Positions 44,737 through 64,000 of a stretch of 64,000 nucleotides of DNA are shown in pieces. Positions within the stretch are counted from its first letter, which is position 1, and each line of letters opens with the position of its first letter. The DNA lies in the IMG/VR virus record IMGVR_UViG_3300042923_000524, positions 32,001-96,000 of that record. One strand, 5' to 3'. Position numbers and translations under genes: made by a program. The notes under the pieces were generated by a model, which saw only the letters and a list, made by a program, of their open reading frames with translations, had not been told where the DNA came from and did no database searches. This DNA is from a virus.

Positions 44737-44765
44737 TTGCAATATTAACCGATAGGTAATATAAT
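44737..44765 (+). promoter_or_regulatory. SigmaA promoter of the parM operon
   Basis: TTGCAA-17-TATAAT. Confidence 0.65.
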
Positions 44766-44875
44766 AAGAGCATAAGGTATTACTTTTGACATACAAAACA
44801 TTAAACTAAAACTCAAAACAAAAGAAAAACCATAAAAAGTGTTACAAATAACATACTTAAAAGGAGAGTGAAACA

Positions 44876-46017: not shown

Positions 46018-46167
46018 TACTAATAATTAACATAATTACCTATATAAAATACTTCTGATGAAATAATTGATTACAAAAGACTTAAAGAACGCATTAAGAG
46101 TCTAATCAATAGTTTTATTAGGAGTATTTTTATTATAATCATTTGCTTAAAATAGGAGGGATATGAA

Positions 46168-46347
46168 TTGGAAGTGATAGGTGCATTTATATATACTTAT
46201 TTAGAATATGTTGTTGGTGGGGTTGGGGCAGTAGGATTTATAGGGTATATGTTGACTAGAAAAACACATGACCATTCAAATGATTTAACCCCTTATGTAG
46301 TAAAATTGGGTAGACAAAAAGATGCTATTACTAAACAAACAAAATAA
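46168..46347 (+). CDS. Small membrane protein (59 aa) heading the FtsK operon
   Basis: TTG start after AGGAGGG; MEVIGAFIYTYLEYVVGGVGAVGFIGYML.. Confidence 0.55.
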   Translation: MEVIGAFIYTYLEYVVGGVGAVGFIGYMLTRKTHDHSNDLTPYVVKLGRQKDAITKQTK

Positions 46348-46363
46348 AGTGAGGTAGTGTATT

Positions 46364-47752
46364 ATGGCAAACCCATTAGCAAAAACAAATTTGAAATCTA
46401 AATTAACTAAAGAGGATATTCTAAATCAGAAAAAATATATAAAAGCAAAAAACGAATTCAAAGAAAAATTCTACAGATTAATGTTTGAGTTAGGTTTGTA
46501 CAATAAATTCAATAAAACTTATTTCTTACAGATAATGAATGAAACTAATTATGGATTTTATGCTCAGTTGTATCTTGTAGATGGTCTTTCGTTTAAACAA
46601 CTTCAACAAAAAATAGGTGAATTACAGGAGGGATTATGTTGTATTTGGATAATGCAGACTAAACAATTTGAGAATTATGCTTCAGTAAAGATAGTTACTC
46701 AACCTTTAGATGAAAACTTACCATTTGAAAATCCAAAGATTAAACCACATCAAATGTATCTAGGTATGAGTTTTTCAATGAAACCTATAATCATAGACGT
46801 TGTGTTAAACTGCATGATGCTCTGTGGAGGTGCTACAAACAAAGGAAAAACTAGATGGATATATTGTGTATTACTTAGTTGGATTTTAGGATGTAAACCT
46901 TCAGAAGTTGAATTATATATTTCAGATATTGCAAAGGATGAATACGTACTATTTAAGAATGTTAAACATGTTAAGTGTTATGCCAATGAATTGGAACAAT
47001 TATACAATATGGTACATGAATTAAAACGTAAGTTTGAAGAAAGAAAAGTATTAATTAGTAAATATAGAGAGACAGGTGAAGCGACTAATATATGGGAATA
47101 CAATCTAATTAGTAAAAACAAATTATCATATGTTTATTATGTTATAGATGAATTATCAGTGTTAATGCCTGATAAAACTGACAGTGAAGATGAAAAAGAC
47201 ATGAAAGGCGAAATACTAGCTATTTCAAAAATGCTAGAAAAGACCGCTAGAGCATTAGGTATATATGTATTATGTGCGACACAAAAAACTACTAAAGAAG
47301 AAATGCCAAGTATTATTAAAAATATGTCAGCCGTAAGAGTAAGTTTCGGAGCGAATGATGCAGTATCTTCAGAAGTTATTATGGGAGACTCCAGTGCAGT
47401 AGGGTTGCAACAGAGATATGCTGTCTACTCTTTAAATGGCGGTGAGAAGAAAGATTATTTGTTTAGTCCTTACCTAACCACAGATATGTTAAAAATGTTA
47501 CTAGAGCCGTATAAAACAAATAAAACAGAATTAAACAAACCTAATCCAATAAAAGAAATACCAACTATTGAAACTCTAGATTTACCGAAACAAATGATTC
47601 CTTATAATCAAAATTCAAATTATACACTTCAGCCTATTATATGGAAATTAGATGCAAAGTTTAGACCATATAAAAAGCAGGATGTGGAAATTGTAGAAAT
47701 GCCTAAACCACTATTTCATAATAATGGAGATGATGATTGCATTGATTACTGA
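46364..47752 (+). CDS. FtsK/SpoIIIE-family DNA translocase ATPase
   Basis: Walker A GATNKGKT, Walker B VIDEL, ATQK, RVSF..S. Confidence 0.9.
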   Translation: MANPLAKTNLKSKLTKEDILNQKKYIKAKNEFKEKFYRLMFELGLYNKFNKTYFLQIMNETNYGFYAQLYLVDGLSFKQLQQKIGELQEGLCCIWIMQTKQFENYASVKIVTQPLDENLPFENPKIKPHQMYLGMSFSMKPIIIDVVLNCMMLCGGATNKGKTRWIYCVLLSWILGCKPSEVELYISDIAKDEYVLFKNVKHVKCYANELEQLYNMVHELKRKFEERKVLISKYRETGEATNIWEYNLISKNKLSYVYYVIDELSVLMPDKTDSEDEKDMKGEILAISKMLEKTARALGIYVLCATQKTTKEEMPSIIKNMSAVRVSFGANDAVSSEVIMGDSSAVGLQQRYAVYSLNGGEKKDYLFSPYLTTDMLKMLLEPYKTNKTELNKPNPIKEIPTIETLDLPKQMIPYNQNSNYTLQPIIWKLDAKFRPYKKQDVEIVEMPKPLFHNNGDDDCIDY

Positions 47753-48362
47753 TAAAGATTATTTAATCATACGCTATTTAGAAAAGTATAAATTTTGTAC
47801 CATAGGACAATTAGAGAAAATTTTCTACAGAGAACAACAATACAGTTACAATATTGTGAGAAAAAGACTTGAAGAAATGATTAAGGCTAAATATATTAAA
47901 GAACCTGTTAAGAATCTTGAAACTAATAAGAATGTTTATATTTACAATGACAAAGATTTAAAACCACCTAATCACCATAGATTAATCCTTTTAGATTTAC
48001 TTGCAGAGATGATATATTCAGGATTTAATGTAGAACAATTTGAAATTGAAAAATCATGGGCAGATGGAAAATTTCGTTCAGATGCTTTTGCAGTATTTAC
48101 AATTCCTGATGGTTTTGGTTCTACAAAGAAAAGAAAATATCACTTTTTTATAGAAGTGCAATTATCAAACAACTATCACAACTTGAACAAATATGATGAA
48201 CTTTATAAAACCTATGCTGTTCAAAATTATTTAAACAAAGACTTTTATCCTAATAAGATATTATTAATCTCTGACAAAACTTATCCAAAGATAGAGTTAC
48301 AACATGCTCAAGTAATACAACTAGATACTAAGTTAAGTTTATTTCCAATCATACTTTTATAG
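47724..48362 (+). CDS. Replication-relaxation (Replic_Relax) family protein
   Basis: ITDKD..I..RKRL..HH.L..D..RSDAF..FFIEVQ; follows FtsK. Confidence 0.75.
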   Translation: MEMMIALITDKDYLIIRYLEKYKFCTIGQLEKIFYREQQYSYNIVRKRLEEMIKAKYIKEPVKNLETNKNVYIYNDKDLKPPNHHRLILLDLLAEMIYSGFNVEQFEIEKSWADGKFRSDAFAVFTIPDGFGSTKKRKYHFFIEVQLSNNYHNLNKYDELYKTYAVQNYLNKDFYPNKILLISDKTYPKIELQHAQVIQLDTKLSLFPIILL

Positions 48363-48471
48363 TAAATATTGTAGCAAATACTGTAGTTTTATATGGTTGT
48401 TAACTACTAGATAATAAGGTATGTGGACATTGGGAATATGAATAGGGACAATAAATCAATAGTAATAGCGA

Positions 48472-49134
48472 ATGAATATGAAGCTGTTACGTATGCATGA
48501 AGGAGTGATAGCGATGTCATGGAATTTCAAAATGGCAATTGACGAACTCCATAAGATATTCACTTTCTTAAACTTAGAAATATTCAATAATATACTACCA
48601 GAACCAGCAATTACCATTCAATCTAAAGGTAAGAGAAATGCTCTAGGATGGTGTAGTAAAAATCCAATATGGGTAGATAGTGAAAACAAAGAACAAAAGT
48701 ATGAAATTAACATTTGTGCAGAAAATGCAAATATGAAGACTACTGATATAGTTGAAGTTATGTTGCATGAAATGGTTCATCTTTACGGAGATATACATGA
48801 GATTAAAACTACTTCAAGAAATGGGAGTTTTCATAATAAAAATTATAGAGACTTGGCATTGCAGTTTGGATTAAATGTTGCTAAAACAAAACAATATGGA
48901 TATTCAGAAACAATGCTGTGTGAGGAAACTATAATATTAGTTAATAATGCTAATTTTAATCAAGACGCATTTATATTAGCTAGAATTAATGATGAAGGCA
49001 ATATAAGTAAGAAAAAAGGTAGTATTAAACATGTATGCCCTGATTGTGGAAATAAAGCCAGAACCACCAAAGAGATTCCACTTATATGTGGTAAATGCAT
49101 GGAACAAATGGATATGGAAGTTGATGAAAGTTGA
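48472..49134 (+). CDS. SprT-like metalloprotease domain protein
   Basis: MLHEMVH zincin motif, H...Y, C-terminal CPDC..C..C. Likely start near 48514. Confidence 0.8.
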   Translation: MNMKLLRMHEGVIAMSWNFKMAIDELHKIFTFLNLEIFNNILPEPAITIQSKGKRNALGWCSKNPIWVDSENKEQKYEINICAENANMKTTDIVEVMLHEMVHLYGDIHEIKTTSRNGSFHNKNYRDLALQFGLNVAKTKQYGYSETMLCEETIILVNNANFNQDAFILARINDEGNISKKKGSIKHVCPDCGNKARTTKEIPLICGKCMEQMDMEVDES

Positions 49135-49404
49135 ATATTAATTTTCAAATTATGCGGTAAAACTGAAAAGTTGAATCCGCAATACATATAAGAAAGCTAA
49201 CTACAAAAGATGAATGCAATTTCTTATATTAGTTTAAATGTAGGAATTGTAGTAATACTTATCCTGTGTCTCCTTATGTGTTGGTTTAAGTTATGAGTAA
49301 GATGAATGTTGAATCATTATTCTGCGGTAGTAACTTATCTTGACATGTCTGGTTATGTAGGGTCTGTATTGTTGCAGTTGTTATGTTTGGATTGATGTAG
49401 GAAG

Positions 49405-49794
49405 ATGTGTTGGTCTTATGTGGTTGGCTTTTTATTATATGAACAAAAGAAAGGTGGAATACAAATGTTAAAATTTATGGTTAACTTGTTTGAACTTTAC
49501 TTAATTACTATGGTGAGTTTTAAAGTATTGAGATTTGTAGTAAGAAGAAGTTTTGGATTAGGCAAGAAAAGTAAAGTTAAAAACGCAAAGAAAAGATTGA
49601 GCATTCTTGGAAAGATTAGATTGTTGATTAGTAGACAGTTGCATAGCAAATTAGACGGAATGTTGACTAAACAATCTGAGAGATTTAAAGCAAAAAAAGA
49701 AAGCCTTGCTAAGATTGACGCTCAACAAGACTCAAAGGAGAATATTAATAAAGTTGTAGACTTTAAGGGTTACAAAAGTAAAGTTGTTAAGTAG
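49405..49794 (+). CDS. Membrane-anchored basic protein
   Basis: N-terminal hydrophobic helix; real start probably the ATG about 60 nt downstream of the track start. Confidence 0.55.
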   Translation: MCWSYVVGFLLYEQKKGGIQMLKFMVNLFELYLITMVSFKVLRFVVRRSFGLGKKSKVKNAKKRLSILGKIRLLISRQLHSKLDGMLTKQSERFKAKKESLAKIDAQQDSKENINKVVDFKGYKSKVVK

Positions 49795-49840
49795 TTATGT
49801 GAGAGGTTAATTCCTCTCCTTACTACACTAACAATATTAT

Positions 49841-50104
49841 GTGCTGATTGATTATGGTTTATGCGGAACAAAGGAGAGTGATTTTATGAATTTAATAAAT
49901 TTAATAAGACTTTGCGAATTACTTGAAGCACCAATTACAATAAATTTTCAAAACAAACATATTAAGATTACGATAGACTTTCAAAATTTTGAAGGAAATA
50001 ATTCAGAATTATTATTAGAAGAGATACTTAATGATGAATTGATAAACAAGATATACAAAGAAGAATTAAAAAAATTTGAAAATACAAAGGAGAATGAGTT
50101 ATGA
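49841..50104 (+). CDS. Hypothetical protein
   Basis: ORF track. Confidence 0.5.
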   Translation: MLIDYGLCGTKESDFMNLINLIRLCELLEAPITINFQNKHIKITIDFQNFEGNNSELLLEEILNDELINKIYKEELKKFENTKENEL

Positions 50105-50238
50105 GATATTTATTGATTAATAGCAAAACAAATGAAAAAGTAGGTGATTTTAGTACACGACAAAGAGCAAGTAGAAAGCAAGATAAACTAGACAATGAAT
50201 ATGGTGGTTATATACATCATATTAAAGAAGTTATATAG
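50101..50238 (+). CDS. Small 45-aa protein (..ASRKQDKLDNEYGGY..)
   Basis: Hand-translated; overlaps the upstream stop; followed by a hairpin. Confidence 0.55.
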   Translation: MRYLLINSKTNEKVGDFSTRQRASRKQDKLDNEYGGYIHHIKEVI

Positions 50239-50316
50239 GGAGTGAAATATCTCCCTTCTCTTCACAAAAATAAGAATTTAAAATTATAAGAAATTAATTA
50301 AAAGTGAGGCTATTTT

Positions 50317-50547
50317 ATGGAAAATTGTACAGAAAATAAGCAAAAACATATGAAAATTAATAGAAATTACAAGAGAAAATCTAATAGAAATTATAGATAT
50401 ATACTTATAGATTTAAGTGCTTATAATATACAGAGTATTGCTAATGTGTTGCTGGGATATGGGGTTTATTTATTGTTTAGTAGTATTAATTTGGGTTTTG
50501 AGAGTATGGCTACTGTTAATGCGTTTAAATATTTGAATAGAATGTAA
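50317..50547 (+). CDS. Hypothetical membrane protein
   Basis: Basic N-terminus and C-terminal TM segment. Confidence 0.5.
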   Translation: MENCTENKQKHMKINRNYKRKSNRNYRYILIDLSAYNIQSIANVLLGYGVYLLFSSINLGFESMATVNAFKYLNRM

Positions 50548-50568
50548 AATAAGAAAGGGGATAGAATA

Positions 50569-50751
50569 ATGGGTACAATTATTACAATGGCTGGTATTGC
50601 TATAGGTGGAATGATGTTAGAAGGAGTTTTAGCAAAAGCAGGTAAAATGGAAGAGGCTAAATATGTAGGAATGACAACTATAGCAGGTTTGGCAATCACT
50701 GCTGTTACTAAGTTTGTGCAATTAGCAAAAACACTTAGTAGTTTAGGTTAG
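50569..50751 (+). CDS. SpoIIIAC/AD-like small membrane protein
   Basis: IITMAGIAI...L..VL.K.GK.E.AKYV pattern matches SpoIIIAC (IFQIAGVGIV..L..IL...GKKEYAQWV). Confidence 0.55.
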   Translation: MGTIITMAGIAIGGMMLEGVLAKAGKMEEAKYVGMTTIAGLAITAVTKFVQLAKTLSSLG

Positions 50752-50759
50752 GTGATATT

Positions 50760-51107
50760 ATGTTAGGATTAATAACTTTAGCAGGAGGAGCAATTGTTAT
50801 AGGAATTAGTTGTATGGTTGATGCCAGTGGAACTGTAAAGTTAGTTGTTAGTGCAATCACAATAAGAGGTATTACATGGGTAATTAAAAAAACTATAGGT
50901 AGTATAGATAAAGATAAAGCTGATTTGATAAACTTTACTGGATGGAGTATATGTGGTATTAGTTTGGTTGGAATATTAAAGAATTGTAAGAAAGGGATAG
51001 AACCAATTGTGAGGGATTTTGGTGAAGCTGCTGGAACTGTGAGTAAGATTAAAAGTGATTTAGATGGATTTGCTGAATGGGTAGAGAGAATTACATTTTG
51101 GGACTAA
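50760..51107 (+). CDS. Membrane protein, possibly with a SpoIIIAC-like second half
   Basis: Several hydrophobic helices; same operon. Confidence 0.45.
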   Translation: MLGLITLAGGAIVIGISCMVDASGTVKLVVSAITIRGITWVIKKTIGSIDKDKADLINFTGWSICGISLVGILKNCKKGIEPIVRDFGEAAGTVSKIKSDLDGFAEWVERITFWD

Positions 51108-51110
51108 AAA

Positions 51111-51136
51111 TATAAGGGTAGATTACTACCCTTATA
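51111..51136. terminator. Bidirectional terminator between convergent genes
   Basis: TATAAGGGTA-N6-TACCCTTATA. Confidence 0.75.
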
Positions 51137-51152
51137 TTTTATTTTATATTTA

Positions 51153-51740
51153 TTATTGATTAATATATGTAAAAGTGAATCCATTATAATCTTTTCTATT
51201 ATTATTTAATACTTGCCATATTATTTTATAATCTAAATTTAATTCTTTTCCTGCTTCTATAAGTGAATTATATATTTTTTTTGTTTCATTACATACTATT
51301 TTTCGTTTTGTTAAAGATTCATTTCTTATTAAATCCTCACCAGTATATCCAGATTCCAATCTTCCCAATATTGTAAGTCTTTTAACTCCACTTTCTTTTG
51401 ACCATTCAGAAATACTTTTTGTAATTCCATTAATTGTTATTTCTTTTCTATTTGACCTATTTATTGCTTGTTTGTTTAATGGTATCCATTTACAATTTTC
51501 AGGACAATAATCTTTATCAACATCAATACGTTCTAAACTCAATCCTTCTTCATAACCATTATTTATTGCCCACTCTTTAAATGTTAAATAATCATTCCAC
51601 TCATCACATATCTTAATTCCTTTTCCACCATAATACTTATAATTTTCAAATGTAATACAATTACATCTTTTTCTCATACCATTCCATCTTTTATAAAGTG
51701 TGGTATAAGATTCTCCATGTGTCTTTTTACCCATTAACAT
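51153..51740 (-). CDS. HNH-type endonuclease with a NUMOD1-like C-terminus
   Basis: LYKRW.GM..RC..YGGKGI.IC.EW..LERID.DKDYCPENCKW..Q..NR. Confidence 0.8.
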   Translation of the reverse strand: MLMGKKTHGESYTTLYKRWNGMRKRCNCITFENYKYYGGKGIKICDEWNDYLTFKEWAINNGYEEGLSLERIDVDKDYCPENCKWIPLNKQAINRSNRKEITINGITKSISEWSKESGVKRLTILGRLESGYTGEDLIRNESLTKRKIVCNETKKIYNSLIEAGKELNLDYKIIWQVLNNNRKDYNGFTFTYINQ

Positions 51741-52656
51741 ACCTCCTTGATTTTATAATTTTATATTAGTTATTTAATCATAACATGGATATACAGAATG
51801 TCAATAACAAATATAAAAGTGTACTTAAAAAATATGGTTTTAAATATAGTGAATTTAAAGTGATTTTAAGACATTGAGATGATAAGGGGTGTTTTGGTAT
51901 TGGGAATGGGTAAAGTTTTGTTATAGATTAAATTGGAATTCGGAGAGGGGATTTGGAAGATATATCTTTGGTAGGATTTATTATTAGTTTTGATTATGTA
52001 AGAAATATATGCATAGTGGAGTGCATGATAGATACATATGCATTGTAGACTGCATAATTAAAGAAGGTATTAAGTCAATTATATTTAGTTTTAAGACATT
52101 ATTTATTTTAGTGGTGTATTTATATTATGTGAGTGGGAAGTTTTATTAGGGATTATTATATTAATTGGAGAAGGGATATCGTAATGGGAGAATTGGGTGG
52201 GAATTTGGTTATCGGTTTGTTGGGTGGTATGGTTTGGATTATTTGGGTTAAGTGTTGGAATTGCTCTGTTTGATGTTTTGGTATTGGGTTTGTTTACAGA
52301 ATGTAGTCGGATTTATTGTGTAATTTCAATGGGTATAGGGTATTGTGGGTATTTTTTAATATTATTATTGTAAATACATGCCCCATTATTGGTAGAGATT
52401 GTAAGTTGTAGACGATAGTTTTGTCGATGTGGGATGGGTGGATTTTTGATTTTGTTTTGTAAAATTATACATTCGATTTCGTATTTTAGGTTGGGTGTGT
52501 TTGTTGATGTACTCATGTCCCCATCTGCTAAATGATAATTATTATTAATGTAAACTATGCCCTACCTTATGAAGCTGCTTTATTGACCAATAGCAATAAA
52601 TACCTTTCAACCATTGATATTACTATGTTTAAAGGTATTTATTACATTGTAAAAAC

Positions 52657-52684
52657 ATATCCTATAATGATTATTATGTTGTAT
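52657..52684 (+). other. dif-like tyrosine-recombinase site
   Basis: ATATCCTATAA-TGATTA-TTATGTTGTAT compared with B. subtilis dif ACTTCCTAGAA-TATATA-TTATGTAAACT: 8/11 and 7/11 arm identity, 6-bp spacer. Confidence 0.5.
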
Positions 52685-53640
52685 GTTATGCATTATGTAA
52701 GCTAATAAAGGGAATAATAGTACTATAGAAGGTTGTTTTACTCTGGTTTATTGGATGCTCTGAATGGTTACATATAATTGCAGAATATTGCATAGTTATA
52801 ATGTAAAGTTCGCTTTACATAACAGCGGTTGTTACGTTGAAGTATTAGGTTAGTTACTTAACTAATTAACCACTGTATTAATACAATAATACAATATCAA
52901 ATACATGCAAAATAATTTGCACTATAGCAAATATATTTGCACTATAATTATATCATTACAATTAATCATCTATTGTCAACTAACTAAAACTACAAGTTAA
53001 CAATTAAATCACTAACCTAATAATCTAATAGTATTGTTAACTACAATCAAACAAAAGGTTAACAATCAATCATACAATAACCAATACAACCATATACATT
53101 AACCATAACTATATTATACATTAATTAATACTACTACACATAGTAATCAATACTACATAATTGTATATAAATTACAAAACAATTCAAACTGCATCAAATA
53201 CAACCTAATACATTATATCACATATTAAACTAATACAATATCATACAGTACCTATAAACATACTATGCTACACACTAATATTACATATCCTTTATACATC
53301 CACTGCATAACCAATCATACAATAACTAATATAAAACTCCACTCCATCCAATACCCTTCAAACGCTCCAAAATGCCTTTAAACGAATTAAACCCTTTTAG
53401 CATACACTAACACTATTCTCCAAAAACAATAGCTTTCCTTATATTGCAATGCTTACAACATATACCATCATAAACCAGTAATAAGCTAATAAAATGCATA
53501 AAATAAATACATAAACTAATACCATTATTAAAACTCTATTATATAATATATAAAAAATATATTTACAAATACTAATATAAAACTATTGCAAATTAAAATA
53601 ATAACTATATAATAGTATATAGAATCAATTATATAAGGAG

Positions 53641-54132
53641 TTGTTAACCATGACATATGAAGTCACCAGAAAACAAACAAACAATAATAAAACCTTTACA
53701 AATATAATTAATCAAGACCAACTAAACAACATAATCAAATATCCTTCAAGCCTTTACACAATAGAATCAATATCACCAATAGAAGAGAACAAAACAACCG
53801 AACATGAAACAATAGAGCCTGAAGAAATAAAAAAGAATGATGCACGTTTAACTGAACAACAAAAAGCAGTTAAGCAACTAATAAAAGACTTGAATCTTAA
53901 ATATGATACCGTAATAAATACAACAACAAATATATACATCAATAAAAATAGAAAAATAAAAAACATACAAGACATACTATATTACGCTCTACAATATAAA
54001 ATAATCAGTATAGGCGAATATAGTAAAATAGGTGATTACATCTCAGTATTTAGAAACGGAATACAAGGATTAGAACATATAAAAAGTAATGGGAAAATAA
54101 AAATAGAAATGTATAGAGAAGATGCTAAATAG
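53641..54132 (+). CDS. Hypothetical early protein
   Basis: Promoter TTGCAA-16-TATAAT at 53586-53613; RBS; terminator at 54121-54143. Confidence 0.6.
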   Translation: MLTMTYEVTRKQTNNNKTFTNIINQDQLNNIIKYPSSLYTIESISPIEENKTTEHETIEPEEIKKNDARLTEQQKAVKQLIKDLNLKYDTVINTTTNIYINKNRKIKNIQDILYYALQYKIISIGEYSKIGDYISVFRNGIQGLEHIKSNGKIKIEMYREDAK

Positions 54133-54253
54133 GCATCTTTTTCTCTTTGTATATCAAAATAGACATATTGACAATATACAAAACCATGATAATATTAATA
54201 TAAGACATAATAAAATCAATATAAAATTATAGAAGGGAGGAAATAATACTAAT

Positions 54254-54412
54254 ATGAAATACGAATATAAAATCGAGTTTGAATCTCATAATGATAATAT
54301 CATTGAAATAATACATAAAATTAATGATATATTATCATCCAAATTAATAAACCAAATTACAAATATAAAACAGACATTTACAATATTAGATGATATTAAG
54401 GAAAATAAATAA
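54254..54412 (+). CDS. Small 52-aa protein
   Basis: Hand-translated; promoter TTGACA at 54168; RBS GGGAGG. Confidence 0.45.
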   Translation: MKYEYKIEFESHNDNIIEIIHKINDILSSKLINQITNIKQTFTILDDIKENK

Positions 54413-54767
54413 TCAATAGTAGTCTGCCGACGGCTTGACATTGGTCTGCTAAAGCATCCCAAGTCAAAATAATATTATTATCCTTTTACTTTATTATTTT
54501 AAACCTAATTTAAACCTAACAAACCAAACTAATATAAGGAGTTGATTATTATATAAACCTTAACTAATAACATATATAAAATTGTACTAGAATGTAAGAT
54601 AAGAGTTTAAACATCCTAAAAACCGACTTTAAACCTACTCTAACAACTCATTTCAGCTTTTGAATAGGTATGCTGTATCATACCTTTAGGTTCGCTGTAG
54701 CATACCTATTGAGTAAAATTGACCTATAAAACACATAAAAACACTAATAATTAAGGAGGAAATAACA

Positions 54768-55358
54768 ATAAAAAACAAAGAAAGTAAAACTAATAATAAA
54801 CAATCTCCACTATATGAAATAGAAGATATAAAAGACGATGAGATTATCAAAGTATTAATAAATCCAGAGTCAGGAGAAATTGAAGGTTATATCCGTAATG
54901 GAGATAGAATAATAAGAAGTGGCTCAATTAATGCATTCAATAAACACAATGCTAATTATGAGGATAAAGATGACAGACATTTTACAAAGAATTATCATTC
55001 AGAGCTACAAAGAATTACTAAATTGAGACTCAATAAAAAACTATCAATGGCAGCAGAACTATTATTCAGAACTTTAGGAGATTATTTAGACTTCTCTGGA
55101 GATAATATAATAAAAAACAACTCTGAAGCAATGGGAACAAAGACAATAGGAGAAAATATTTTAGGTTATGGAAAAAGCCAGACAATAGCATTATTAAATG
55201 AACTAATAAATTTAAGTCTTATTGCAAAGGTTAAAAGAGGCAGAAACGTTATATACATAATGAATCCTATTTACTATCATAGAGGAAAAATATTAAAAAC
55301 AACTATTACAATATTCAAAATTAAGACAGATAATATTGATTGGGATATAATAGAGTAA
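54768..55358 (+). CDS. RepL-like HTH replication/maintenance protein (196 aa if it starts at ATA)
   Basis: Frame is open 85 codons upstream of the track start; NPESGEI..GDRI.R; C-terminal L.ELI..LI.K..Y.MNP.YY.RG. Confidence 0.6.
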   Translation: MKNKESKTNNKQSPLYEIEDIKDDEIIKVLINPESGEIEGYIRNGDRIIRSGSINAFNKHNANYEDKDDRHFTKNYHSELQRITKLRLNKKLSMAAELLFRTLGDYLDFSGDNIIKNNSEAMGTKTIGENILGYGKSQTIALLNELINLSLIAKVKRGRNVIYIMNPIYYHRGKILKTTITIFKIKTDNIDWDIIE

Positions 55359-55656
55359 ATACATAATTTAATATTTTCATCTAAAAGGCTCATAAAACAG
55401 CCTTTTTATTTTGCTTTAAACCGCCTAAAATCCATCCCTTAATAACCAAACTCCAAACACCACAAAACACGCTTAAAATCAATCCTAGTAGCTTACAAGG
55501 GCATATGTGATAAAAGATATAAAATTATAGTTAATAATCAGTATATAAACGACTACTAAAAATAAATATAAAATTATTGAACAAAACTATTGTAATTACA
55601 TATAATATAGTATAAAATAAGAGATAATAAATATAAAATTTGAGGAAGTGTTATAA

Positions 55657-55887
55657 ATGGAAGAAACAAAATTTGAAACCGCTTTAAAAATCTGGATGGT
55701 AGAAAATGGATATATAAACAAAGGCTGGAGATTTAGCATAGAAAGTAAATCAGCAATAGGAAATTCTGATTTAGCTGAAGTGATATGCAAAGCATATGAA
55801 CCAAGAAAAAGAAAACCTTTTTATATTACATTTAAATACAACTTTGTAAGGGAACAAATAAAAACAGATACGATTCAAGTTAATTAG
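55657..55887 (+). CDS. Hypothetical early protein
   Basis: Promoter, RBS and terminator cassette. Confidence 0.6.
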   Translation: MEETKFETALKIWMVENGYINKGWRFSIESKSAIGNSDLAEVICKAYEPRKRKPFYITFKYNFVREQIKTDTIQVN

Positions 55888-56609
55888 AGGCAATATGCCT
55901 CTTTTTATTTCTCTTAATTCCTACTAAAACACTAAGATATAAATTATATCAATTAAATATATTACATATAAAAACTAAACAATTCAAACAATATACAAAA
56001 ACACCTACAATTCAAATAAATAAATAATCCTGCCAAAATAATCATAAACACCATAAAATAAAACCAGCCTATAAAATTGTATAATTTGTACCATAAAAAC
56101 ACTATGTATAAATCTGTATATTTATACACAGAAACAACCCAAATCCTGCATAAATATCCAGCCTTTTAAATGCGTTTTAAGACATTATTTTTATATTAGT
56201 CATACACTAATACCACCAACTTTTTATGCATCACAACCCATTGCAATTACTACATTATACATTGACTGCATACGATTATTTACATCAAAATTTCCACAAA
56301 ATCGTAAAAATATCCTAAATACTGTAAATTTTAGGGTATACCCTCATAGGGTAGTAGGGTAAAATGTGCATATCATATGCATATTAATTTTATATATGTT
56401 TTTATATAATAGCCATCTAAATTGTATAAATTGTGAAAAATGTTTTAAAAACTCACACAATTTGATCCCATTTGGTGAACTTGGGACTTAGTATTTTTAT
56501 TGATAGAAACATATAATAATAGATATAAAATTAATGTTTGACAATAAGAATATATCTATGTTAATATTAATATAATAAATCAAATATATTAATAAGGAGT
56601 TGTTACAAT

Positions 56610-56798
56610 ATGGTAAAGGAATTAATAAACTTTTTAAAAGAATCAAACTTTAACTACTTAGAAATAAAACTAAATGAAGATACCACGAGAACAATAGACA
56701 TAAAAACAAATTCAGAAACAACAATTAAAAAACACTTAAAAGAATATATAAATAAAAATTATAAGATAGAAAAGAAAACAATAAAAAGAGGTTTTTAA
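56610..56798 (+). CDS. Hypothetical early protein
   Basis: TTGACA at 56538; terminator at 56786-56806. Confidence 0.6.
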   Translation: MVKELINFLKESNFNYLEIKLNEDTTRTIDIKTNSETTIKKHLKEYINKNYKIEKKTIKRGF

Positions 56799-56860
56799 CC
56801 TCTTTTTATTTTATCATAAATATATTGTTATATATTTAAATACACATATAAAATTAATTG

Positions 56861-56889
56861 TTGACATACATATAATAAAGGATTATACT
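56861..56889 (+). promoter_or_regulatory. SigmaA early promoter
   Basis: TTGACA-17-TATACT. Confidence 0.8.
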
Positions 56890-56921
56890 ATATAATATAA
56901 TAAGTAATAAATCATAAGGAG

Positions 56922-57206
56922 TTGAATACTGTGACTAAATCTAAAACACCTACATACACAAAGAATGCTTTAAAAATATCAGAGTTAGCAATAAATTTAA
57001 CTTCAATTGCTGAAGACGATAAAAAGCAAATTAATGAATATACTTTACAAGAAGTATTAAATGAAGCAAAATATATATTAAGTTGCTACAATGAATCAGG
57101 ACATATGTTAAATGAAGATTTAGATTCAGACGATATTGAAACAAGAAAACAGGCACAAAAACAAGTTAACCAGTTAAAAAAATATATCATCAAATATAAT
57201 AAATAG
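56922..57206 (+). CDS. Hypothetical early protein
   Basis: ORF track; GTG after the RBS. Confidence 0.6.
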   Translation: MNTVTKSKTPTYTKNALKISELAINLTSIAEDDKKQINEYTLQEVLNEAKYILSCYNESGHMLNEDLDSDDIETRKQAQKQVNQLKKYIIKYNK

Positions 57207-57218
57207 GAGATGTATTAA

Positions 57219-57416
57219 ATGAAAAAAATAGAATATGAAGCGTTAGGATGGACTAAGAAAGGTATTGTTTATAGAAAAGGTAATATTAAAGTAAGGCATG
57301 CAGCAAAATTAAACGAAGCAAACGGAAAAAGAACCGATTATATAAAAGTAGAAATTGACGGAAAATTGATAGATAATAATTATAAAACATTAAACGAAGC
57401 ATTACAGAAATTATAA
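57219..57416 (+). CDS. Hypothetical early protein
   Basis: RBS GGAG; terminator at 57415-57441. Confidence 0.6.
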   Translation: MKKIEYEALGWTKKGIVYRKGNIKVRHAAKLNEANGKRTDYIKVEIDGKLIDNNYKTLNEALQKL

Positions 57417-57523
57417 GAGCTTGAAAAATAGCTCTTTTTCTTTTCTCAATCTTTCAACCAATTCTGTAATTTGAGGACATTTAAAATTTTAGAAATATAT
57501 CATAATGAATATAAAATTATATA

Positions 57524-57552
57524 TTGACATATAATTATAATGGGTTTATAAT
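57524..57552 (+). promoter_or_regulatory. Consensus sigmaA early promoter
   Basis: TTGACA-17-TATAAT. Confidence 0.85.
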
Positions 57553-57571
57553 TAAAGAAAATACAAATTAA

Positions 57572-57838
57572 TTGGAGGTTTTAAACATGACTAAAAAAGA
57601 ATTATATATGAATAGAATCAATCATGCAATAATTACAAAGTATGACATTGAATTAGTTATTTTTACTGAAGGTCAAAGACATCCAGACTGTTATTACAAA
57701 GATATAGAAACTAATAGATGTTATGAAGAAACAGGAACAAAGAATTTAAAAAGTCAATTTGAGATTGTAAAAAGAAGAATCAAAAATGCTGATTTTGAAA
57801 ATACAATGAAAACTTGTCAAATACCTGAAGCCGAATAA
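57572..57838 (+). CDS. Hypothetical early protein
   Basis: ORF track. Confidence 0.6.
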   Translation: MEVLNMTKKELYMNRINHAIITKYDIELVIFTEGQRHPDCYYKDIETNRCYEETGTKNLKSQFEIVKRRIKNADFENTMKTCQIPEAE

Positions 57839-57856
57839 AAATAAAAGGAGAAAATA

Positions 57857-58060
57857 ATGGATTGGATTTTATCAATAGTATCTATGGTAATGCTTTGGAT
57901 GATGGGCAATAAAAATAAGTATGCTCCATTTATAGGGATAATTGCACAAGTGCTATGGATATATTATGCAATATCATTAAAACAATATGGATTATTAGTT
58001 GGAACTATTGGATATTTAGTTATACATATTAGAAATGCTGTAAAATGGCAAAAGAATTAA
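57857..58060 (+). CDS. Small membrane protein, PnuC-like half-transporter pattern
   Basis: DW.LS...W.MG.K..APFIG..Q.LW..Y..QYGL..I.N..KW. Confidence 0.45.
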   Translation: MDWILSIVSMVMLWMMGNKNKYAPFIGIIAQVLWIYYAISLKQYGLLVGTIGYLVIHIRNAVKWQKN

Positions 58061-58354
58061 TTTGACCATAAAATAACAATTTCAAAGACTATTATAAAGC
58101 CTTTTGGATGCCCTCCAGAGGCTTTAATTTTATCTATGAATAAACATAATAGCATTATAGCAGTATTATATATTATAATATCTGGATGCCTTAAAAACGA
58201 TTTAAAAGCCTTGAAATTGTAGTAAAGTTATATTTATTGAGATGGCAGCAACGTATATTTTAATAATTTTAAATTAAATAATGAATATAAAATTTAGTTA
58301 TTGACTATAATAATATTGATATGATATAATTAAATTAATACATATTAAAAAGGA

Positions 58355-59041
58355 GTGATTACCATGACAAGTAAAGATATAAAAGAAATAGTAGAAGTAT
58401 GGAAGGCTCAACCAATAGAAAGATTTAGAGATAATGTAGAAAGTTATACAAGAGCAATAAAAAGACATGAAAACGAGATACAAGAAATATTATTAAAAAT
58501 GCAACAATTAGATGTTAATCATAAATATTATATTGATAAAATGAAGAATATGAATAGTGACATTAAAACAGCATTAGGATTTTTAAAAGAAGACAAAGCA
58601 CTTGTTGAAGCATCGCAACCAGAGCTTGAAAAAGCAGAAAATGAAATAAAAATACTTGAAGAGTCAAAGAAACCTCAATTTGAAGTATTAAAAAACTTTG
58701 TAGAGCAATGGAAAACTGAAGCTATAAATTATTATTTAGAACTTCTTAAAAATGGCTATGATGGCAAAGACGATTATATAATAGACTTATTACAAAGAGG
58801 AGAAAAATATATAATAAATCTTTACACAATAGAAGCTAAAGCAAGGCTAGTAAATATGATAACATTGATAAAAGAAAAGACTGGCGAAGTAATATCTTGT
58901 AATTTATACGGAAGTGGAAACAATCAAAAGTTTGGTTTTGAGGGAACAGTAACAGGAGAAAAGAAAACAGTAAGAGTCGAAGCAATTTTAGCAGGTGGAT
59001 GGAATATTCAAAAACTACATGTAAGACTATTAATAAATTAA
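58355..59041 (+). CDS. Hypothetical coiled-coil protein with a C-terminal AGGWNIQ.LH.R.L motif
   Basis: ORF track; promoter at 58301-58330; terminator at 59041-59064. Confidence 0.65.
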   Translation: MITMTSKDIKEIVEVWKAQPIERFRDNVESYTRAIKRHENEIQEILLKMQQLDVNHKYYIDKMKNMNSDIKTALGFLKEDKALVEASQPELEKAENEIKILEESKKPQFEVLKNFVEQWKTEAINYYLELLKNGYDGKDDYIIDLLQRGEKYIINLYTIEAKARLVNMITLIKEKTGEVISCNLYGSGNNQKFGFEGTVTGEKKTVRVEAILAGGWNIQKLHVRLLIN

Positions 59042-59123
59042 AGAGTTAGAAATAACTCTTTTTTCTTTTAATAAGAATGAATATAAAAATTATATTTGAC
59101 AATACTATTGTTAGCGTGTTAAA

Positions 59124-59315
59124 ATGAGTTATAATCTAAATTTAAGGAGTGAGTATTTTATGAGTATGTATATAATAGAAGTTAACGAAGACGGCGAAAA
59201 TATGCAATATGAGTATGGCAGCAAGGCACATGCTGAAGAGCATTATAATTTTGAAGCACATTGTACAATGTATGAATATATAGATGGTAAACATTATTAC
59301 ATGAAATCTAAGTAA
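59124..59315 (+). CDS. Hypothetical small protein (real start probably ATG 59160)
   Basis: RBS AAGGAG upstream of the second ATG; promoter at 59096-59125. Confidence 0.55.
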   Translation: MSYNLNLRSEYFMSMYIIEVNEDGENMQYEYGSKAHAEEHYNFEAHCTMYEYIDGKHYYMKSK

Positions 59316-59438
59316 ATATGATTATAAAATAGGCTGAATAAAGCCTATTTTTTTTATGTATTGACTTCCTATAAACTCATGTTACAATTAAAGAGAATAC
59401 ATAACACATATAAAATTAATAAAGGAGGAAACGAATTA

Positions 59439-60314
59439 TTGAATGTATTATCATTATTTGATGGAGGCTCATGCGGTCAAGTAGCATTACAGAGGGCAAA
59501 TATAAAAGTAGAAAAATATTATGCTAGTGAAATAAATCCAAATAGCGTAAAAGTAACACAAAAGAATTACCCTAATACAATACAGCTTGGAGATGTAACA
59601 CAACTAAACAAAGAAAAATTATTAAATTTAGGTAAAATTGATTTATTAATTGGTGGTAGTCCCTGCGAAGATTTAACAATAACCGCAATTGATAGAAAAG
59701 ATATTAACAAAGGTTTAGAAGGTAAAAAGTCAAAGTTGTTTTATAATTATGTGGATGCTCTTAATATTATTAAACCTAAATACTTTTTACTTGAAAATGT
59801 TGCAAGTATGACAAAAGAAAATATAGATATAATATCTAGTGAATTAGGAGTAAAACCAATATTAATAAATAGTAATTTAGTATCGGCTCAGGATAGGGAA
59901 AGACTTTACTGGACTAATATTACAGGTATTGCACAGCCAAAAAATAAAGAAATTTTATTAAAACACGTCTTGCAGCGAGATGTAGAAGAAAAATTTTACT
60001 ACAATAAACCCTTTGAATTTTATGGATTAGATAAAAAAGTATGTGCGAAATTGTTAGTAAATTCTCATGATTTAGTTAAAAGAGTTTATAATCCAGATTT
60101 TAAATGTGCAACATTAACAGCTGTACAAGGTGGATATCAAGAGAAAAAAGTTTATATAAATAGTAGAGTTAGAAAATTAACACCAATAGAATATGAAAGA
60201 CTTCAGACTTTACCAGATAATTATACATATGGAGTTAGCAATACAGCACGCTATAGTATTTGTGGAGATGGTTGGACAGTTGATATAATAGCACATATTT
60301 TTAAAAATATATAA
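59439..60314 (+). CDS. dcm: C5-cytosine DNA methyltransferase
   Basis: LSLFDG, GGSPC, LENV, Q.R.RLYW, R.LTP.EYERLQ, GDGWT. Track start TTG 59361 is the -35 box of its promoter; real start is TTG 59439. Confidence 0.9.
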   Translation: MNVLSLFDGGSCGQVALQRANIKVEKYYASEINPNSVKVTQKNYPNTIQLGDVTQLNKEKLLNLGKIDLLIGGSPCEDLTITAIDRKDINKGLEGKKSKLFYNYVDALNIIKPKYFLLENVASMTKENIDIISSELGVKPILINSNLVSAQDRERLYWTNITGIAQPKNKEILLKHVLQRDVEEKFYYNKPFEFYGLDKKVCAKLLVNSHDLVKRVYNPDFKCATLTAVQGGYQEKKVYINSRVRKLTPIEYERLQTLPDNYTYGVSNTARYSICGDGWTVDIIAHIFKNI

Positions 60315-60406
60315 TGACTTATATAAAATTATCAATAGTTATTGACATATAAAACGTTGTAGTATAATATAATATATAAGATACTACATAAAAAAGGAGT
60401 GAAGTC

Positions 60407-60634
60407 ATGAAGATATATTATACATTAAACTCCGAAGAACTTGGAGAAGAAGCAAAGAAAGAAACATTAATAAATATTTATAATGAATGGCTGAGATATA
60501 AGAAAGATGATAAAGAAACGGGAGACAAGAAGACATATTATTTTATTAAACATGAAATAGAAAACAATGTTGATAATACAACAGAAGGAAAAGTTTATAA
60601 AAGAGGTAATCAAATTTATTTTAAATCAATATAA
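60407..60634 (+). CDS. Hypothetical early protein
   Basis: TTGACA at 60342; RBS. Confidence 0.6.
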   Translation: MKIYYTLNSEELGEEAKKETLINIYNEWLRYKKDDKETGDKKTYYFIKHEIENNVDNTTEGKVYKRGNQIYFKSI

Positions 60635-60653
60635 TATTAAGGAGTTGTTATAA

Positions 60654-60806
60654 TTGGCTATTATGACAGATAAAGAATTACAAAATATAGCAAGTGATTT
60701 ATTTCGTAAATATTGGAATATGGATTTAACTATTTCTGTTTCGGTTAATCCTAAAATGTATAAATGGTCTGCAAGATGTTACCCTATGACAGTTGGGAAA
60801 CATTAA
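60654..60806 (+). pseudogene. Short 50-aa ORF resembling a truncated SprT-like N-terminus
   Basis: L..IA..F..YW.MDL.I.V.VN.KM..; no HExxH before the stop. Confidence 0.3.
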
Positions 60807-60999
60807 TAAATAGAGGATATAAGAAAAGAATTTAGCAGTTTATTAATTGCAGCCGAAAGGCTGTTTTTAATTTCACGACAAAACACTTCTTTCATGGTCA
60901 TTACTGGAGCAGATTATTTTTAAAAATCATGTATCAACTTTAAACTAAAAGCATATAATAAATTAACCAAATACAAATATAAAACTTTTAAAATATTTG

Positions 61000-61029
61000 T
61001 TGACAGAAATTTCTAGCATATGTTATAAT
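61000..61029 (+). promoter_or_regulatory. SigmaA extended -10 early promoter
   Basis: TTGACA-18-TATAAT with TG. Confidence 0.75.
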
Positions 61030-61061
61030 GAATTATCGAATAAATTATAGAAGGTGAAATC

Positions 61062-61295
61062 ATGAAACAATATAGAACATCATATAAAAAAGTTAATGAC
61101 TTATGCAACTTATTAGAGTATAGACTTGTAAAACATGAATGGTTAGGGAAAACAGATTATTTTTATAATTACTCTCTTGTAAAAGATGAAAACGGACGTT
61201 ATAAAGAAACAATTCTAAAAACAACTAGCTTGAAAAATGTTTATGAATGGTTATTAGAAAATGGAATCAATTATAATAATGGCATAAAATATTAA
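61062..61295 (+). CDS. Hypothetical early protein
   Basis: ORF track. Confidence 0.6.
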   Translation: MKQYRTSYKKVNDLCNLLEYRLVKHEWLGKTDYFYNYSLVKDENGRYKETILKTTSLKNVYEWLLENGINYNNGIKY

Positions 61296-61296
61296 A

Positions 61297-61366
61297 TCTC
61301 GACTATGCGAGTATAAACAGACTTTAAGCATAGAGCGTTAACAGGTTTAACAGCCTGTTAGGTAGT
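61297..61366 (+). ncRNA. Pistol-class self-cleaving ribozyme (copy 1)
   Basis: P1 CUCG/CGAG with loop ACUAUG; AUAAACAG; P2 ACU/AGU; UUAAG; pseudoknot CAUAG pairs with CUAUG; AGCG; P3 UUAACAGG/CCUGUUAG; G|U site at 61362/61363. Confidence 0.85.
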
Positions 61367-61399
61367 AATAAATAATAAATTAATAGGAGTGATTTATCA

Positions 61400-61537
61400 A
61401 TGCCAAGTAAAACAGTAAGAGAAACGGAATATAATAAAACAATCCAATATAAAGACGGACAAATGACATATTGTATCAACTATAGAAAAGAATTTCATAA
61501 ATCATTTATAAATGGTTTTAGATGGGTAGAATGTTAA
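61400..61537 (+). CDS. Small 45-aa protein downstream of ribozyme 1
   Basis: Hand-translated; RBS AGGAG. Confidence 0.55.
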   Translation: MPSKTVRETEYNKTIQYKDGQMTYCINYRKEFHKSFINGFRWVEC

Positions 61538-61589
61538 TTCAATAAAATCCAAATTTGGTCATCATGTAAAAATTTAGGAGGTGCGTATA

Positions 61590-61697
61590 ATGTGTAGAAT
61601 CTGTGGAGCAGAAACAAAAGAAACTATTTGTAAAGAGTGTCAAAAAGAATTAATCAAAGAAAACTATAACAAAACTTTTATTAAAATATCAAAATAA
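61590..61697 (+). CDS. Small Zn-finger peptide (35 aa)
   Basis: MCRICG..ICKECQ; RBS GGAGG. Confidence 0.55.
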   Translation: MCRICGAETKETICKECQKELIKENYNKTFIKISK

Positions 61698-61725
61698 AAA
61701 TATAAAATTATAGGAGAGTGTAAAA

Positions 61726-61938
61726 ATGAGCAATTACAATTTAAATAGCAAACAAGTAGCCTTAATTATACAATCCCTTTTAAATGATGCCTGTTTTTAT
61801 GAATGTGATAATAAAGAATATGAAAAGACAGTTAAAAAAGAAGGGCACGAACTAATTAACTTTTTATTAGAACAACACAATAAACAAGAATCAGAAACAT
61901 TAAAACACTATAATAATTATGTTGAAGGAGTGAATTAA
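61726..61938 (+). CDS. Hypothetical early protein
   Basis: ORF track; RBS. Confidence 0.6.
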   Translation: MSNYNLNSKQVALIIQSLLNDACFYECDNKEYEKTVKKEGHELINFLLEQHNKQESETLKHYNNYVEGVN

Positions 61939-61940
61939 AA

Positions 61941-62090
61941 ATGAAAGATTTATTTGAAAAATTAGAATATGCAAAAAAGGCGGTATTAAGAACATTAGAA
62001 AAAGAAAGTTGTTCAGTTGATTTTCATGGTTTATCATATTGGGCAAATGAAGTAGAGCGTTTACGCAATGAAATTAAAAAGATATTATAA
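61941..62090 (+). CDS. Small 49-aa protein
   Basis: Hand-translated; RBS AAGGAG; terminator at about 62100-62122. Confidence 0.6.
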   Translation: MKDLFEKLEYAKKAVLRTLEKESCSVDFHGLSYWANEVERLRNEIKKIL

Positions 62091-62213
62091 TATTAAGAGA
62101 AGCCTGTAAAAAGGCTTTTTCTTTTATCTAATATCCAGACCAAATAGATGTTTTATTGTCATATAATGTCGATAAGTTTTATAATAATTAATATAAAATT
62201 GAGCAAAATAATG

Positions 62214-62243
62214 TTGACAGATTAAAAACACGTATGTTATAAT
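62214..62243 (+). promoter_or_regulatory. SigmaA extended -10 early promoter
   Basis: TTGACA-18-TATAAT with TG. Confidence 0.75.
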
Positions 62244-62310
62244 TAGTTATACCAATTAATTAGAAATTCAATAATAACAAATAACAAATAACAAATATAA
62301 AATATAAGGA

Positions 62311-62991
62311 GTGGAAATTATGAAAAAAACATTATATTTTGAAGGTGCAGGATGGTCGGGAGCAGATATAAGCCAAAGAACAATAGGAAATTGCAGAATA
62401 AGAACAGGATTCACAAACAACGAAGGAAGAAAAATCTATTTAGAAATTACTGGTTATGAAAAATCAGCCAATGATAAAAAGATTGACAGATATTCAGAAT
62501 ATCAAGTTGGAGAAGCAATTGGATTTGTAGATTATTGTTTTTATATTGATACAGAATCAAAAGACCCTTGCAACGAATGCAGAATAAAAGACATAGAACA
62601 TAATGCAAAATTTGCTTATACAAAAGAAGGTATAACAGAGTTTATTAATAAAAATCTGAAGTGCAGCTTTGAAACTATCGAAGTATTGCCAGATTTAGGA
62701 GGTTACAGAGTACACGGAGATAACAAAACATATAGCATGATGGAAGACTACAATCATAATTCAGAACTAATTAAGACAAGAGAAGAAGTTTACAATCATT
62801 TTTACGGACTTGAAAAATCAGAAGGTAAACAATATCCAAACTTCTCTTTATGGGTAGATGATAAAGACATTCACTTATTACACTTGTTAAGACATTTTAA
62901 TGGTTATAATAAGCATTGGTCAATTCATACCGATATAGAAAACTGGAAAGAAACAATAACAGAAACCAAGTTGGGAAAATATGCCTGTTAG
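62311..62991 (+). CDS. Hypothetical early protein
   Basis: ORF track. Confidence 0.65.
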   Translation: MEIMKKTLYFEGAGWSGADISQRTIGNCRIRTGFTNNEGRKIYLEITGYEKSANDKKIDRYSEYQVGEAIGFVDYCFYIDTESKDPCNECRIKDIEHNAKFAYTKEGITEFINKNLKCSFETIEVLPDLGGYRVHGDNKTYSMMEDYNHNSELIKTREEVYNHFYGLEKSEGKQYPNFSLWVDDKDIHLLHLLRHFNGYNKHWSIHTDIENWKETITETKLGKYAC

Positions 62992-63096
62992 TTAATTATT
63001 TACTGTTAGAGTACACTATAACAAATATAAAACTATAGTGTACTCCATAGAGTAAATAAAACTCTAAAAAATATAATAACAGGAGCGTGTTTATAT

Positions 63097-63498
63097 ATGA
63101 TAAAAACATTTAAGAAAGAATTAAATAGCCACGATTACAATGAAATAAGAATAATTAATTTAGAATCTGGAGAATTTACACACTATTTTCAGGATAAAAA
63201 TATAGGCTTTATATTTTCAGATTATACAACAACAGTATTTGAAATGGGCTATAAATCAGTTAAAGAATGCATTAAAGAACTAAGAAGCCGAGGTTTATTA
63301 GGTCAAGAAGTTGATTACAAAGAACAAAAAGAATCTGAAAGAATCGGTTATATTAAATTAGGCGTAGAGCGCATTAAAAGAGCAGGAAGAGTAAATACAA
63401 ATGATTTTGAAGATGTAATAACAAAGCTATCAAAATATGGTATGGGATTCTGTGATGCTCAAAATGTAATAACAGAAACATATTTATATCAAGCATAG
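63097..63498 (+). CDS. Hypothetical early protein
   Basis: ORF track. Confidence 0.6.
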   Translation: MIKTFKKELNSHDYNEIRIINLESGEFTHYFQDKNIGFIFSDYTTTVFEMGYKSVKECIKELRSRGLLGQEVDYKEQKESERIGYIKLGVERIKRAGRVNTNDFEDVITKLSKYGMGFCDAQNVITETYLYQA

Positions 63499-63500
63499 CA

Positions 63501-63572
63501 ACAGGTCACAGCCTGTATAAATAGTGCTTTAAGCTGTGAGCGTGTCAAGGTATAACAGCCTTGACGATAGCA
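63501..63572 (+). ncRNA. Pistol-class self-cleaving ribozyme (copy 2)
   Basis: P1 ACAGG/CCUGU with loop UCACAG; AUAAAUAG; P2 UGCU/AGCA; UUAAG; pseudoknot CUGUG pairs with CACAG; AGCG; P3 UGUCAAGG/CCUUGACG; A|U at the cleavage position (63567/63568). Confidence 0.85.
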
Positions 63573-63599
63573 AAATAAAGGTTTAGGAGGTCGTTAAAC

Positions 63600-63908
63600 A
63601 TGAGTTATAATAAGGCTATGAAGCATTCAAACAATCATAGAAAAGATAAATACTATCAACCAGTTTTAGGTATGCCCTTTGAAGGTTTAAAAGAAGGAGA
63701 GCATATAGAAAGCTATCAAAGTATAGCAGAAAGAACAGCAGAATCATATCATGTTAAAGCTTTTAACGAAATAAATAATACATGGGAAAGAATGTCTAAG
63801 GATTTTTTAACAGAATCAGAAGCGATTGACGAAAGTTTTATATTTGACGAAAAGGGTTATAGAACTAGAATATATAGTGATAAAGATATGAGAGTTGCAG
63901 GATGGTAA
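63600..63908 (+). CDS. Hypothetical early protein downstream of ribozyme 2
   Basis: ORF track; RBS AGGAGG. Confidence 0.6.
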   Translation: MSYNKAMKHSNNHRKDKYYQPVLGMPFEGLKEGEHIESYQSIAERTAESYHVKAFNEINNTWERMSKDFLTESEAIDESFIFDEKGYRTRIYSDKDMRVAGW

Positions 63909-64000
63909 AAACACTATAACAGCCGAGGTATTTTAAACCATGAAGTTTTAAAAAGTTACTATAACAGTCGACACAAAATAGTTGACGAAGTTTTCTTATA

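Follow-up and report, generated by a model that had tools for sequence, protein, structure and literature searches.

A pistol ribozyme between the first and second of five small genes in an SPbeta-like phage, and its likely part in splitting their mRNA

What does a self-cleaving ribozyme do when it lies between two small genes of a phage? The pistol class of such ribozymes was reportedly described by Weinberg in 2015. Its members occur in phage genomes and near phage genes (Harris 2015, PMC4604425), and the processing of polycistronic phage and bacterial mRNAs by ribozymes has been suggested and remains unproven (PMC6765202). The element considered here, copy 1, is a new example of this known class, pistols in Firmicute phages having been described in 2015. 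Its value is that of a defined case for what phage ribozymes do, with promoter, five ORFs, terminator and predicted cut all mapped. It comes from an uncultured soil phage and lies in a stretch of 64,000 nucleotides (the window), positions 32,001 to 96,000 of the 137,947-bp IMG/VR record IMGVR_UViG_3300042923_000524. Coordinates below are those of the window, plus strand, unless stated otherwise.

Identity and anatomy of copy 1

Searched in its entirety against Rfam 15 with cmscan, the window matched the Pistol model (RF02679) at 61297-61367 on the plus strand, with 64.1 bits and an E-value of 2.3e-9 calculated over the whole window and all 4227 Rfam families. The alignment spans model positions 1-68 of 68. 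A sequence-only reading of this DNA had called the element a pistol and named the Rfam model as one way to check it; the score, compared with a gathering cut-off of 34.5, bears this out. The start then given, 61297, stands, and the end has to be moved from 61366 to 61367, where the model ends. No other Rfam family overlapped copy 1 in the scan, and on the minus strand the element shows no better folding than shuffled sequences.

The layout drawn in that reading (P1, a 5-bp pseudoknot, AUAAA, UUAAG, AGCG, P3 and the G61362|U61363 junction) agrees with the sequence base for base. P1 (61298-61311) is a CUCG/CGAG hairpin in which C61298-G61301 pairs with C61308-G61311 around the 6-nt loop ACUAUG (61302-61307). 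The loop carries the 5' strand of the pseudoknot, CUAUG (61303-61307), which forms 5 bp with CAUAG (61329-61333). Five of the six pseudoknot positions are paired in this way; the first loop base, being an A, cannot pair with the A of AGCG. The linker AUAAACA follows P1 at 61313-61319. The 5' strand of P2, GACU (61320-61323), is aligned by the model with AGUA (61364-61367), giving three Watson-Crick pairs and a G.A. By the same alignment, the UUAAG segment (61324-61328) contains the equivalents of purine-32 (A61327) and G33 (G61328), and the AGCG segment (61334-61337) those of G40, the general base (G61335), C41 (C61336) and G42 (G61337). The roles of these five residues, in env25 numbering, and the structure of the env25 pistol have been reviewed (PMC6154101). 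P3 (61338-61361), traced both by direct reading and in the minimum-free-energy fold, is a hairpin of 8-10 bp closed by the pair U61338.G61361. The two nucleotides that come next, G61362|U61363, are the predicted scissile junction, as judged from their position in the model alignment.

Copy 1 was set against 87 unique phage pistols, collected from IMG/VR with a core pattern and parsed. The short P2 had been noticed from the letters alone and is real; its apparent oddity is not, for G.A is the commonest combination at the outer P2 pair (26 of 87) and three standard P2 pairs are found in 43 of 87. An A at the first P1-loop position occurs in 15 of the 87, and the junction is GU in 75 and AU in 6. 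A gap-free alignment (A4) of copy 1 with 38 other phage pistols has 19 invariant columns, all 19 of which are retained in copy 1; they include AUAAA and the last A of the linker (columns 17-21 and 23), while column 22 varies. In this alignment, 96.5% of the cells in P1 and the pseudoknot pair, as compared to 73% when the sequences are shuffled and 25-40% when the register is slid, and the covariation score for the two helices is 0.63 versus 0.17; P1 covaries across 36 distinct phage pistols. Because the P1 set was pre-filtered for four P1 pairs, only the covariation of the pseudoknot is independent: in the family, four of its columns show changes in both strands, and pairing is found in 94% of its cells in a set unfiltered on the pseudoknot. 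Many of the pistol-bearing IMG/VR contigs (L009-L125) are 90-165 kb long, which hints at an enrichment in large Firmicute-type phages.

On these sequence criteria, the stretch 61297-61367 is confirmed as a genuine, canonical pistol ribozyme. Copy 1 is very probably catalytically active, as its family membership indicates. Pistol cleavage yields a 2',3'-cyclic phosphate product, depends on Mg2+ and proceeds at about 10 per min (PMC4604425). Since copy 1 belongs to the class, this published chemistry predicts a fast, Mg2+-dependent cut at 61362/61363, leaving a 2',3'-cyclic phosphate and a 5'-hydroxyl.

Transcription unit, second copy and phage

Copy 1 begins 1 nt past the stop codon (TAA, 61293-61295) of a 77-aa ORF (61062-61295) that has no match in Pfam or PHROG, and its cut site lies 37 nt from the next AUG. 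Upstream of this ORF is a sigma-A-type promoter, TTGACA-18-TGnTATAAT (61000-61029), with a 12/12 match to the consensus. On the other side, an AGGAG ribosome-binding site (61385-61389) introduces a 45-aa ORF that starts at ATG 61400 (site and ORF together, 61385-61537) and would be the first cistron of the predicted 3' product. It is followed by a small ORF with a weak zinc-ribbon-like match (61581/61590-61697) and by two more (61726-61938 and 61941-62090). The unit ends with a terminator-like hairpin and a T run (62097-62120). Between promoter and hairpin there are thus five small ORFs on the same strand, each led by a ribosome-binding site, and no terminator was found between copy 1 and the next ORF. 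The operon context proposed from the letters is upheld by the consensus promoter, the terminator-like hairpin and the five same-strand ORFs; the 'early' timing of the unit is suggested by its host-type promoter and gene neighbourhood only. Neither Pfam nor PHROG gave a function for the small ORFs that flank either pistol copy. A candidate promoter using the P3 loop as its -35 box (61347-61376, 10/12) was rejected, since in this AT-rich DNA 86 such hits versus 62 expected is not above chance.

The unit lies in a region, from about 44.9 kb onward, in which all ORFs are on the plus strand, and a DNA methyltransferase is encoded just upstream (59361-60314). Over 60900-61997 the sequence recurs without a single difference in a contig from a second soil study, which shows that the region of copy 1 is not an assembly artefact. 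Of the public sequencing runs, two DNA runs were listed as containing the phage and yielded contigs only; no RNA run was listed. Another contig from the second soil set, 1.2 kb long, matches the 5' half of the ribozyme only (61279-61340, with 6 differences); it probably represents the pistol of another phage in the same soil.

The next transcription unit contains a second pistol, copy 2, at 63501-63572 on the plus strand (RF02679, 59.9 bits). Its placement resembles that of copy 1: the upstream stop is at 63498, 2 nt away, the cut is predicted at A63567|U63568 and the next AUG is at 63600, 32 nt beyond. It has an A|U instead of a G|U junction and a full 6-bp pseudoknot, and its P1, pseudoknot, P2 and lower P3 differ from those of copy 1 by compensatory changes. 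The two copies were the only above-gathering Rfam matches that cmscan returned in the window. A scan of 44000-64000 with a permissive E-value gave no further credible element, and the rest of the 137,947-bp record contained no further ribozyme and one tRNA only. A regular-expression search of the genome for permuted or P1-less pistol cores found none, apart from a look-alike at 63358-63371 (TTAGGC..AGCG), inside a 133-aa ORF just upstream of copy 2, which lacks P1 and P3 and probably arose by chance.

The phage encodes, on the minus strand at 38957-41548 and within a block of large minus-strand ORFs, an 863-aa single-subunit RNA polymerase of the YonO type, which marks it as SPbeta-like. This ORF matches phrog_8308 with 965 bits. 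Along 98% of its length it shares 52% identity with the gene annotated yonO in the phi3T/SPbeta group, and it is 62% identical to its counterpart in Clostridium phage D-1873 and 50% to that of Psychrobacillus phage Perkons. Megablast of 59000-64000 against GenBank phages gave no match, and a distant blastn search gave a 162-nt coding match to Perkons only. The Perkons genome (MT325768.1) carries a pistol at 3064-3136 (63.1 bits; L249 1501-1573). Its neighbours are ORF3 and ORF4, in a block of small ORFs at the left end, and ArdA is encoded about 2 kb further downstream. This ribozyme is mentioned neither in the Perkons GenBank record nor in the 2026 paper (PMC13245101). One or two pistols each were also found in three other large IMG/VR phages; a search of a single contig of Clostridium phage D-1873 found none.

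Placement and possible consequences of cleavage

The position of copy 1, from stop codon to ribosome-binding site, is one that recurs in about two thirds of the 87 phage pistols with no link to a gene family. In 60 of the 87, the stop of a frame of at least 40 codons falls within -12 to +10 nt of model position 1; in a similar window (-8 to +10), this is the case for 9.5% of random positions. A start led by a ribosome-binding site is found 20-50 nt past the cut in 28 of the 87, at distances that cluster at 24-48 nt, and 25 have both the start and the stop features. The sample was selected by pattern and its ORFs were crudely called, so these fractions are approximate. Neither copy stands out in these respects: the two distances are 1 nt and 37 nt for copy 1, and 2 nt and 32 nt for copy 2. 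The flanking ORFs are almost all unrelated, 66 upstream ones falling into 62 blastp clusters and 52 downstream ones into 46; most of the encoded proteins have no known function, a few are anti-restriction proteins, and no gene family tied to pistols was found in these flanks. This lack of relationship suggests that the pistol is a generic intercistronic device rather than a regulator of one particular gene.

We consider it likely that an active pistol splits the five-ORF mRNA made by the host polymerase in this SPbeta-like phage, and that the first gene is thereby uncoupled from genes 2 to 5; both the cleavage and its effect are things that we infer. Host RNA polymerase would transcribe copy 1 from the promoter at 61000-61029, in what appears to be a low-GC Firmicute phage, as part of a single mRNA with five small ORFs. 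Once P1, the pseudoknot, P2 and P3 had formed, the 2'-OH of G61362 would attack its own 3' phosphate, with G61335 acting as the general base. The 5' product, carrying the 77-aa ORF, would have the folded ribozyme at its 3' end, bearing a 2',3'-cyclic phosphate and no single-stranded tail. Being flush with P3, such an end should hinder 3' exonucleases, and the upstream message would in this way gain a protective, terminator-like 3' end while transcription continued. The 3' product would begin with a 5'-hydroxyl at U61363, leaving 22 nt ahead of the Shine-Dalgarno sequence and 37 nt ahead of the AUG. By analogy with glmS, the downstream message, having lost its 5' triphosphate, may become open to the RNase J1-type 5' decay of Firmicutes. 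The net result would probably be that the first gene is expressed at a higher level or for longer, and that the downstream genes are expressed at a lower level or from a shorter-lived message. We favour this discoordinate expression because, in Bacillus subtilis, RNase J1 degrades the 5'-hydroxyl RNA that glmS self-cleavage produces (PMC11780869). The direction of the effect is a guess by analogy, since ribosome binding only 22 nt away from the newly made 5' end might shield the message instead.

That last prospect leads to an alternative which we regard as possible and on the unlikely side, namely that cleavage serves to insulate or favour the genes downstream. Freed from the upstream coding RNA, ORF2 would receive a fixed, short and unstructured leader of 37 nt that makes its translation independent of context, and ribosomes loading near the 5' end would protect the 5'-hydroxyl RNA. 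The tight clustering of the cut-to-start distance in the 28 phage pistols above suggests selection on leader length, and only 5 nt of the ribozyme would be left on the 3' product. However, short intergenic spacing is to be expected anyway from the tight packing of phage genes, and glmS, the sole natural precedent in B. subtilis for a 5'-hydroxyl made by a ribozyme, points to decay.

The near absence of related genes in the flanks, most of them without known function, could also be read in another way: the pistol may be a selfish or recombination-prone module at cassette boundaries in hypervariable phage regions, its core serving as homology for the shuffling of small genes and any effect on expression being incidental. 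The presence of two copies 2.2 kb apart within a block of orphan small ORFs would suit such a role. Yet full catalytic cores and covarying helices are kept in every copy, as would be expected if selection acted on the fold of the RNA and not on DNA homology; moreover, conservation at the DNA level is confined to short, interrupted blocks, and no junction or deletion between the copies was seen in two soil data sets. We hold this explanation to be unlikely.

A third explanation starts from the tip of P3. In copy 1, this tip (61343-61356) reads AGG-UUUAACAG-CCU and is identical to that of copy 2 at 13 of 14 positions, whereas in the other non-core helices about one position in four matches between the copies, as read from the model alignments. 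The tip of copy 2 contains the word TATAACAG, and that of copy 1 a one-letter variant, TTTAACAG. It could be that a phage or host factor acting in trans binds the P3 tip, GG-U[U/A]UAACAG-CC, and links cleavage or the fate of the RNA to neighbouring genes that bear TATAACAG. On such a view, the apical loop of P3, which normally varies freely in pistols, would have been recruited in this phage, as in a small number of unrelated large phages, for the display of U[A/U]UAACAG, a word that also marks many neighbouring genes, and the ribozyme or the fate of its products would be under the control of a factor. We think this distinctly unlikely; were it true, the factor reading the word and controlling copy 1 would make this the first trans-regulated pistol.

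The distribution of the word is what speaks for it. The 8-mer TATAACAG occurs 20 times on the plus and 4 times on the minus strand of the genome. Nineteen of the plus-strand copies are gathered in 3.9 kb, from window position 62631 to genome position 98487, beginning 1.3 kb downstream of copy 1; they are mostly intergenic, sometimes within coding sequence, and often lie 2-5 nt past a -10-like box. The word is equally one-sided across 12 kb of the early region of Perkons (7:0), as well as in four other loci with pistols, three of them in records (G002 and G003) that lack YonO. Three further pistols carry it, two (L243 and L111) at the P3 tip, as TATAACAG or a near variant, and one (L093) inside a long P3. 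Against this, the variant found in copy 1 is not enriched (TWTAACAG occurs 13 times in the window versus 10.7 expected), and the Perkons pistol is without the word. The idea that TATAACAG is generally displayed in hairpin loops was rejected: the word lies mostly outside them, 24% of its occurrences being in loops versus 14% of controls, a weak enrichment. The tip of copy 1 is accounted for as well by descent from a common ancestor with copy 2, or by gene conversion with it, as by selection.

Some further observations concern the word itself. Four copies of TATAACAG stand in tandem, spaced by 45, 37 and 37 nt, at 63915-64041 (genome 95915-96041), in a gap of about 300 nt that has no plus-strand ORF of at least 30 aa. 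This array lies just upstream of a TTGACA-17-TAAAAT promoter, which is followed by a fifth copy, and it looks like an operator or an iteron-type array. A search of IMG/VR with the loose pattern GAGCGT..GGTWTAACA returned 116 loci, all of them chance matches and none with a pistol core; a stricter pattern returned 7 stretches, 4 of them pistols (L111, L243, L244 and L245), with two pairs identical in sequence. A comparison of the genes of this phage with those flanking other TATAACAG-bearing pistols gave three marginal matches only.

Finally, that copy 1 is a decayed, dead relic or a chance look-alike, as its one unpaired pseudoknot position and its short P2 might suggest, is highly improbable given its E-value and the retention of every invariant position; besides, the unpaired position recurs in 17% of phage pistols and the short P2 in 30%.

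Comparison with known systems

When compared with the pistol class as a whole, copy 1 has the canonical order of P1, pseudoknot loop, AUAAA, P2, UUA-purine-GC, AGCG, P3 and GU junction, and it is likewise encoded by a phage, of the Firmicute type. It departs from the class by ordinary variation only: the first loop position is an A instead of a U, the outer P2 pair is G.A, and the tip of P3 is common to copies 1 and 2. Hammerhead and twister ribozymes, which also occur in bacterial and phage operons, are similar in being small nucleolytic ribozymes found near phage genes and have different folds; neither was found in this genome by the Rfam scan. The likeness to glmS is a functional analogy only. 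In both cases, self-cleavage leaves a 5'-hydroxyl on the downstream mRNA, but glmS depends on a metabolite, has a different fold and resides in the 5' UTR of one gene, whereas the pistol, for which no cofactor is known, is intercistronic and tied to no gene family.

The closest parallel is provided by Perkons, which, like the phage described here, encodes YonO; it is temperate, has a genome of about 137 kb and is cultured on Psychrobacillus sp. L4. Its pistol, like copy 1, is located between two small orphan ORFs of an early block with promoters of the host type, with about 37 nt from the cut to the AUG. In contrast to copy 1, its flanking genes are non-homologous, its P3 loop is unrelated and the annotated stop of ORF3 falls inside the P1 loop. 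Since Perkons is in culture and carries a pistol in a similar setting, ribozyme-dead mutants and the mapping of 5'-hydroxyl ends are feasible.
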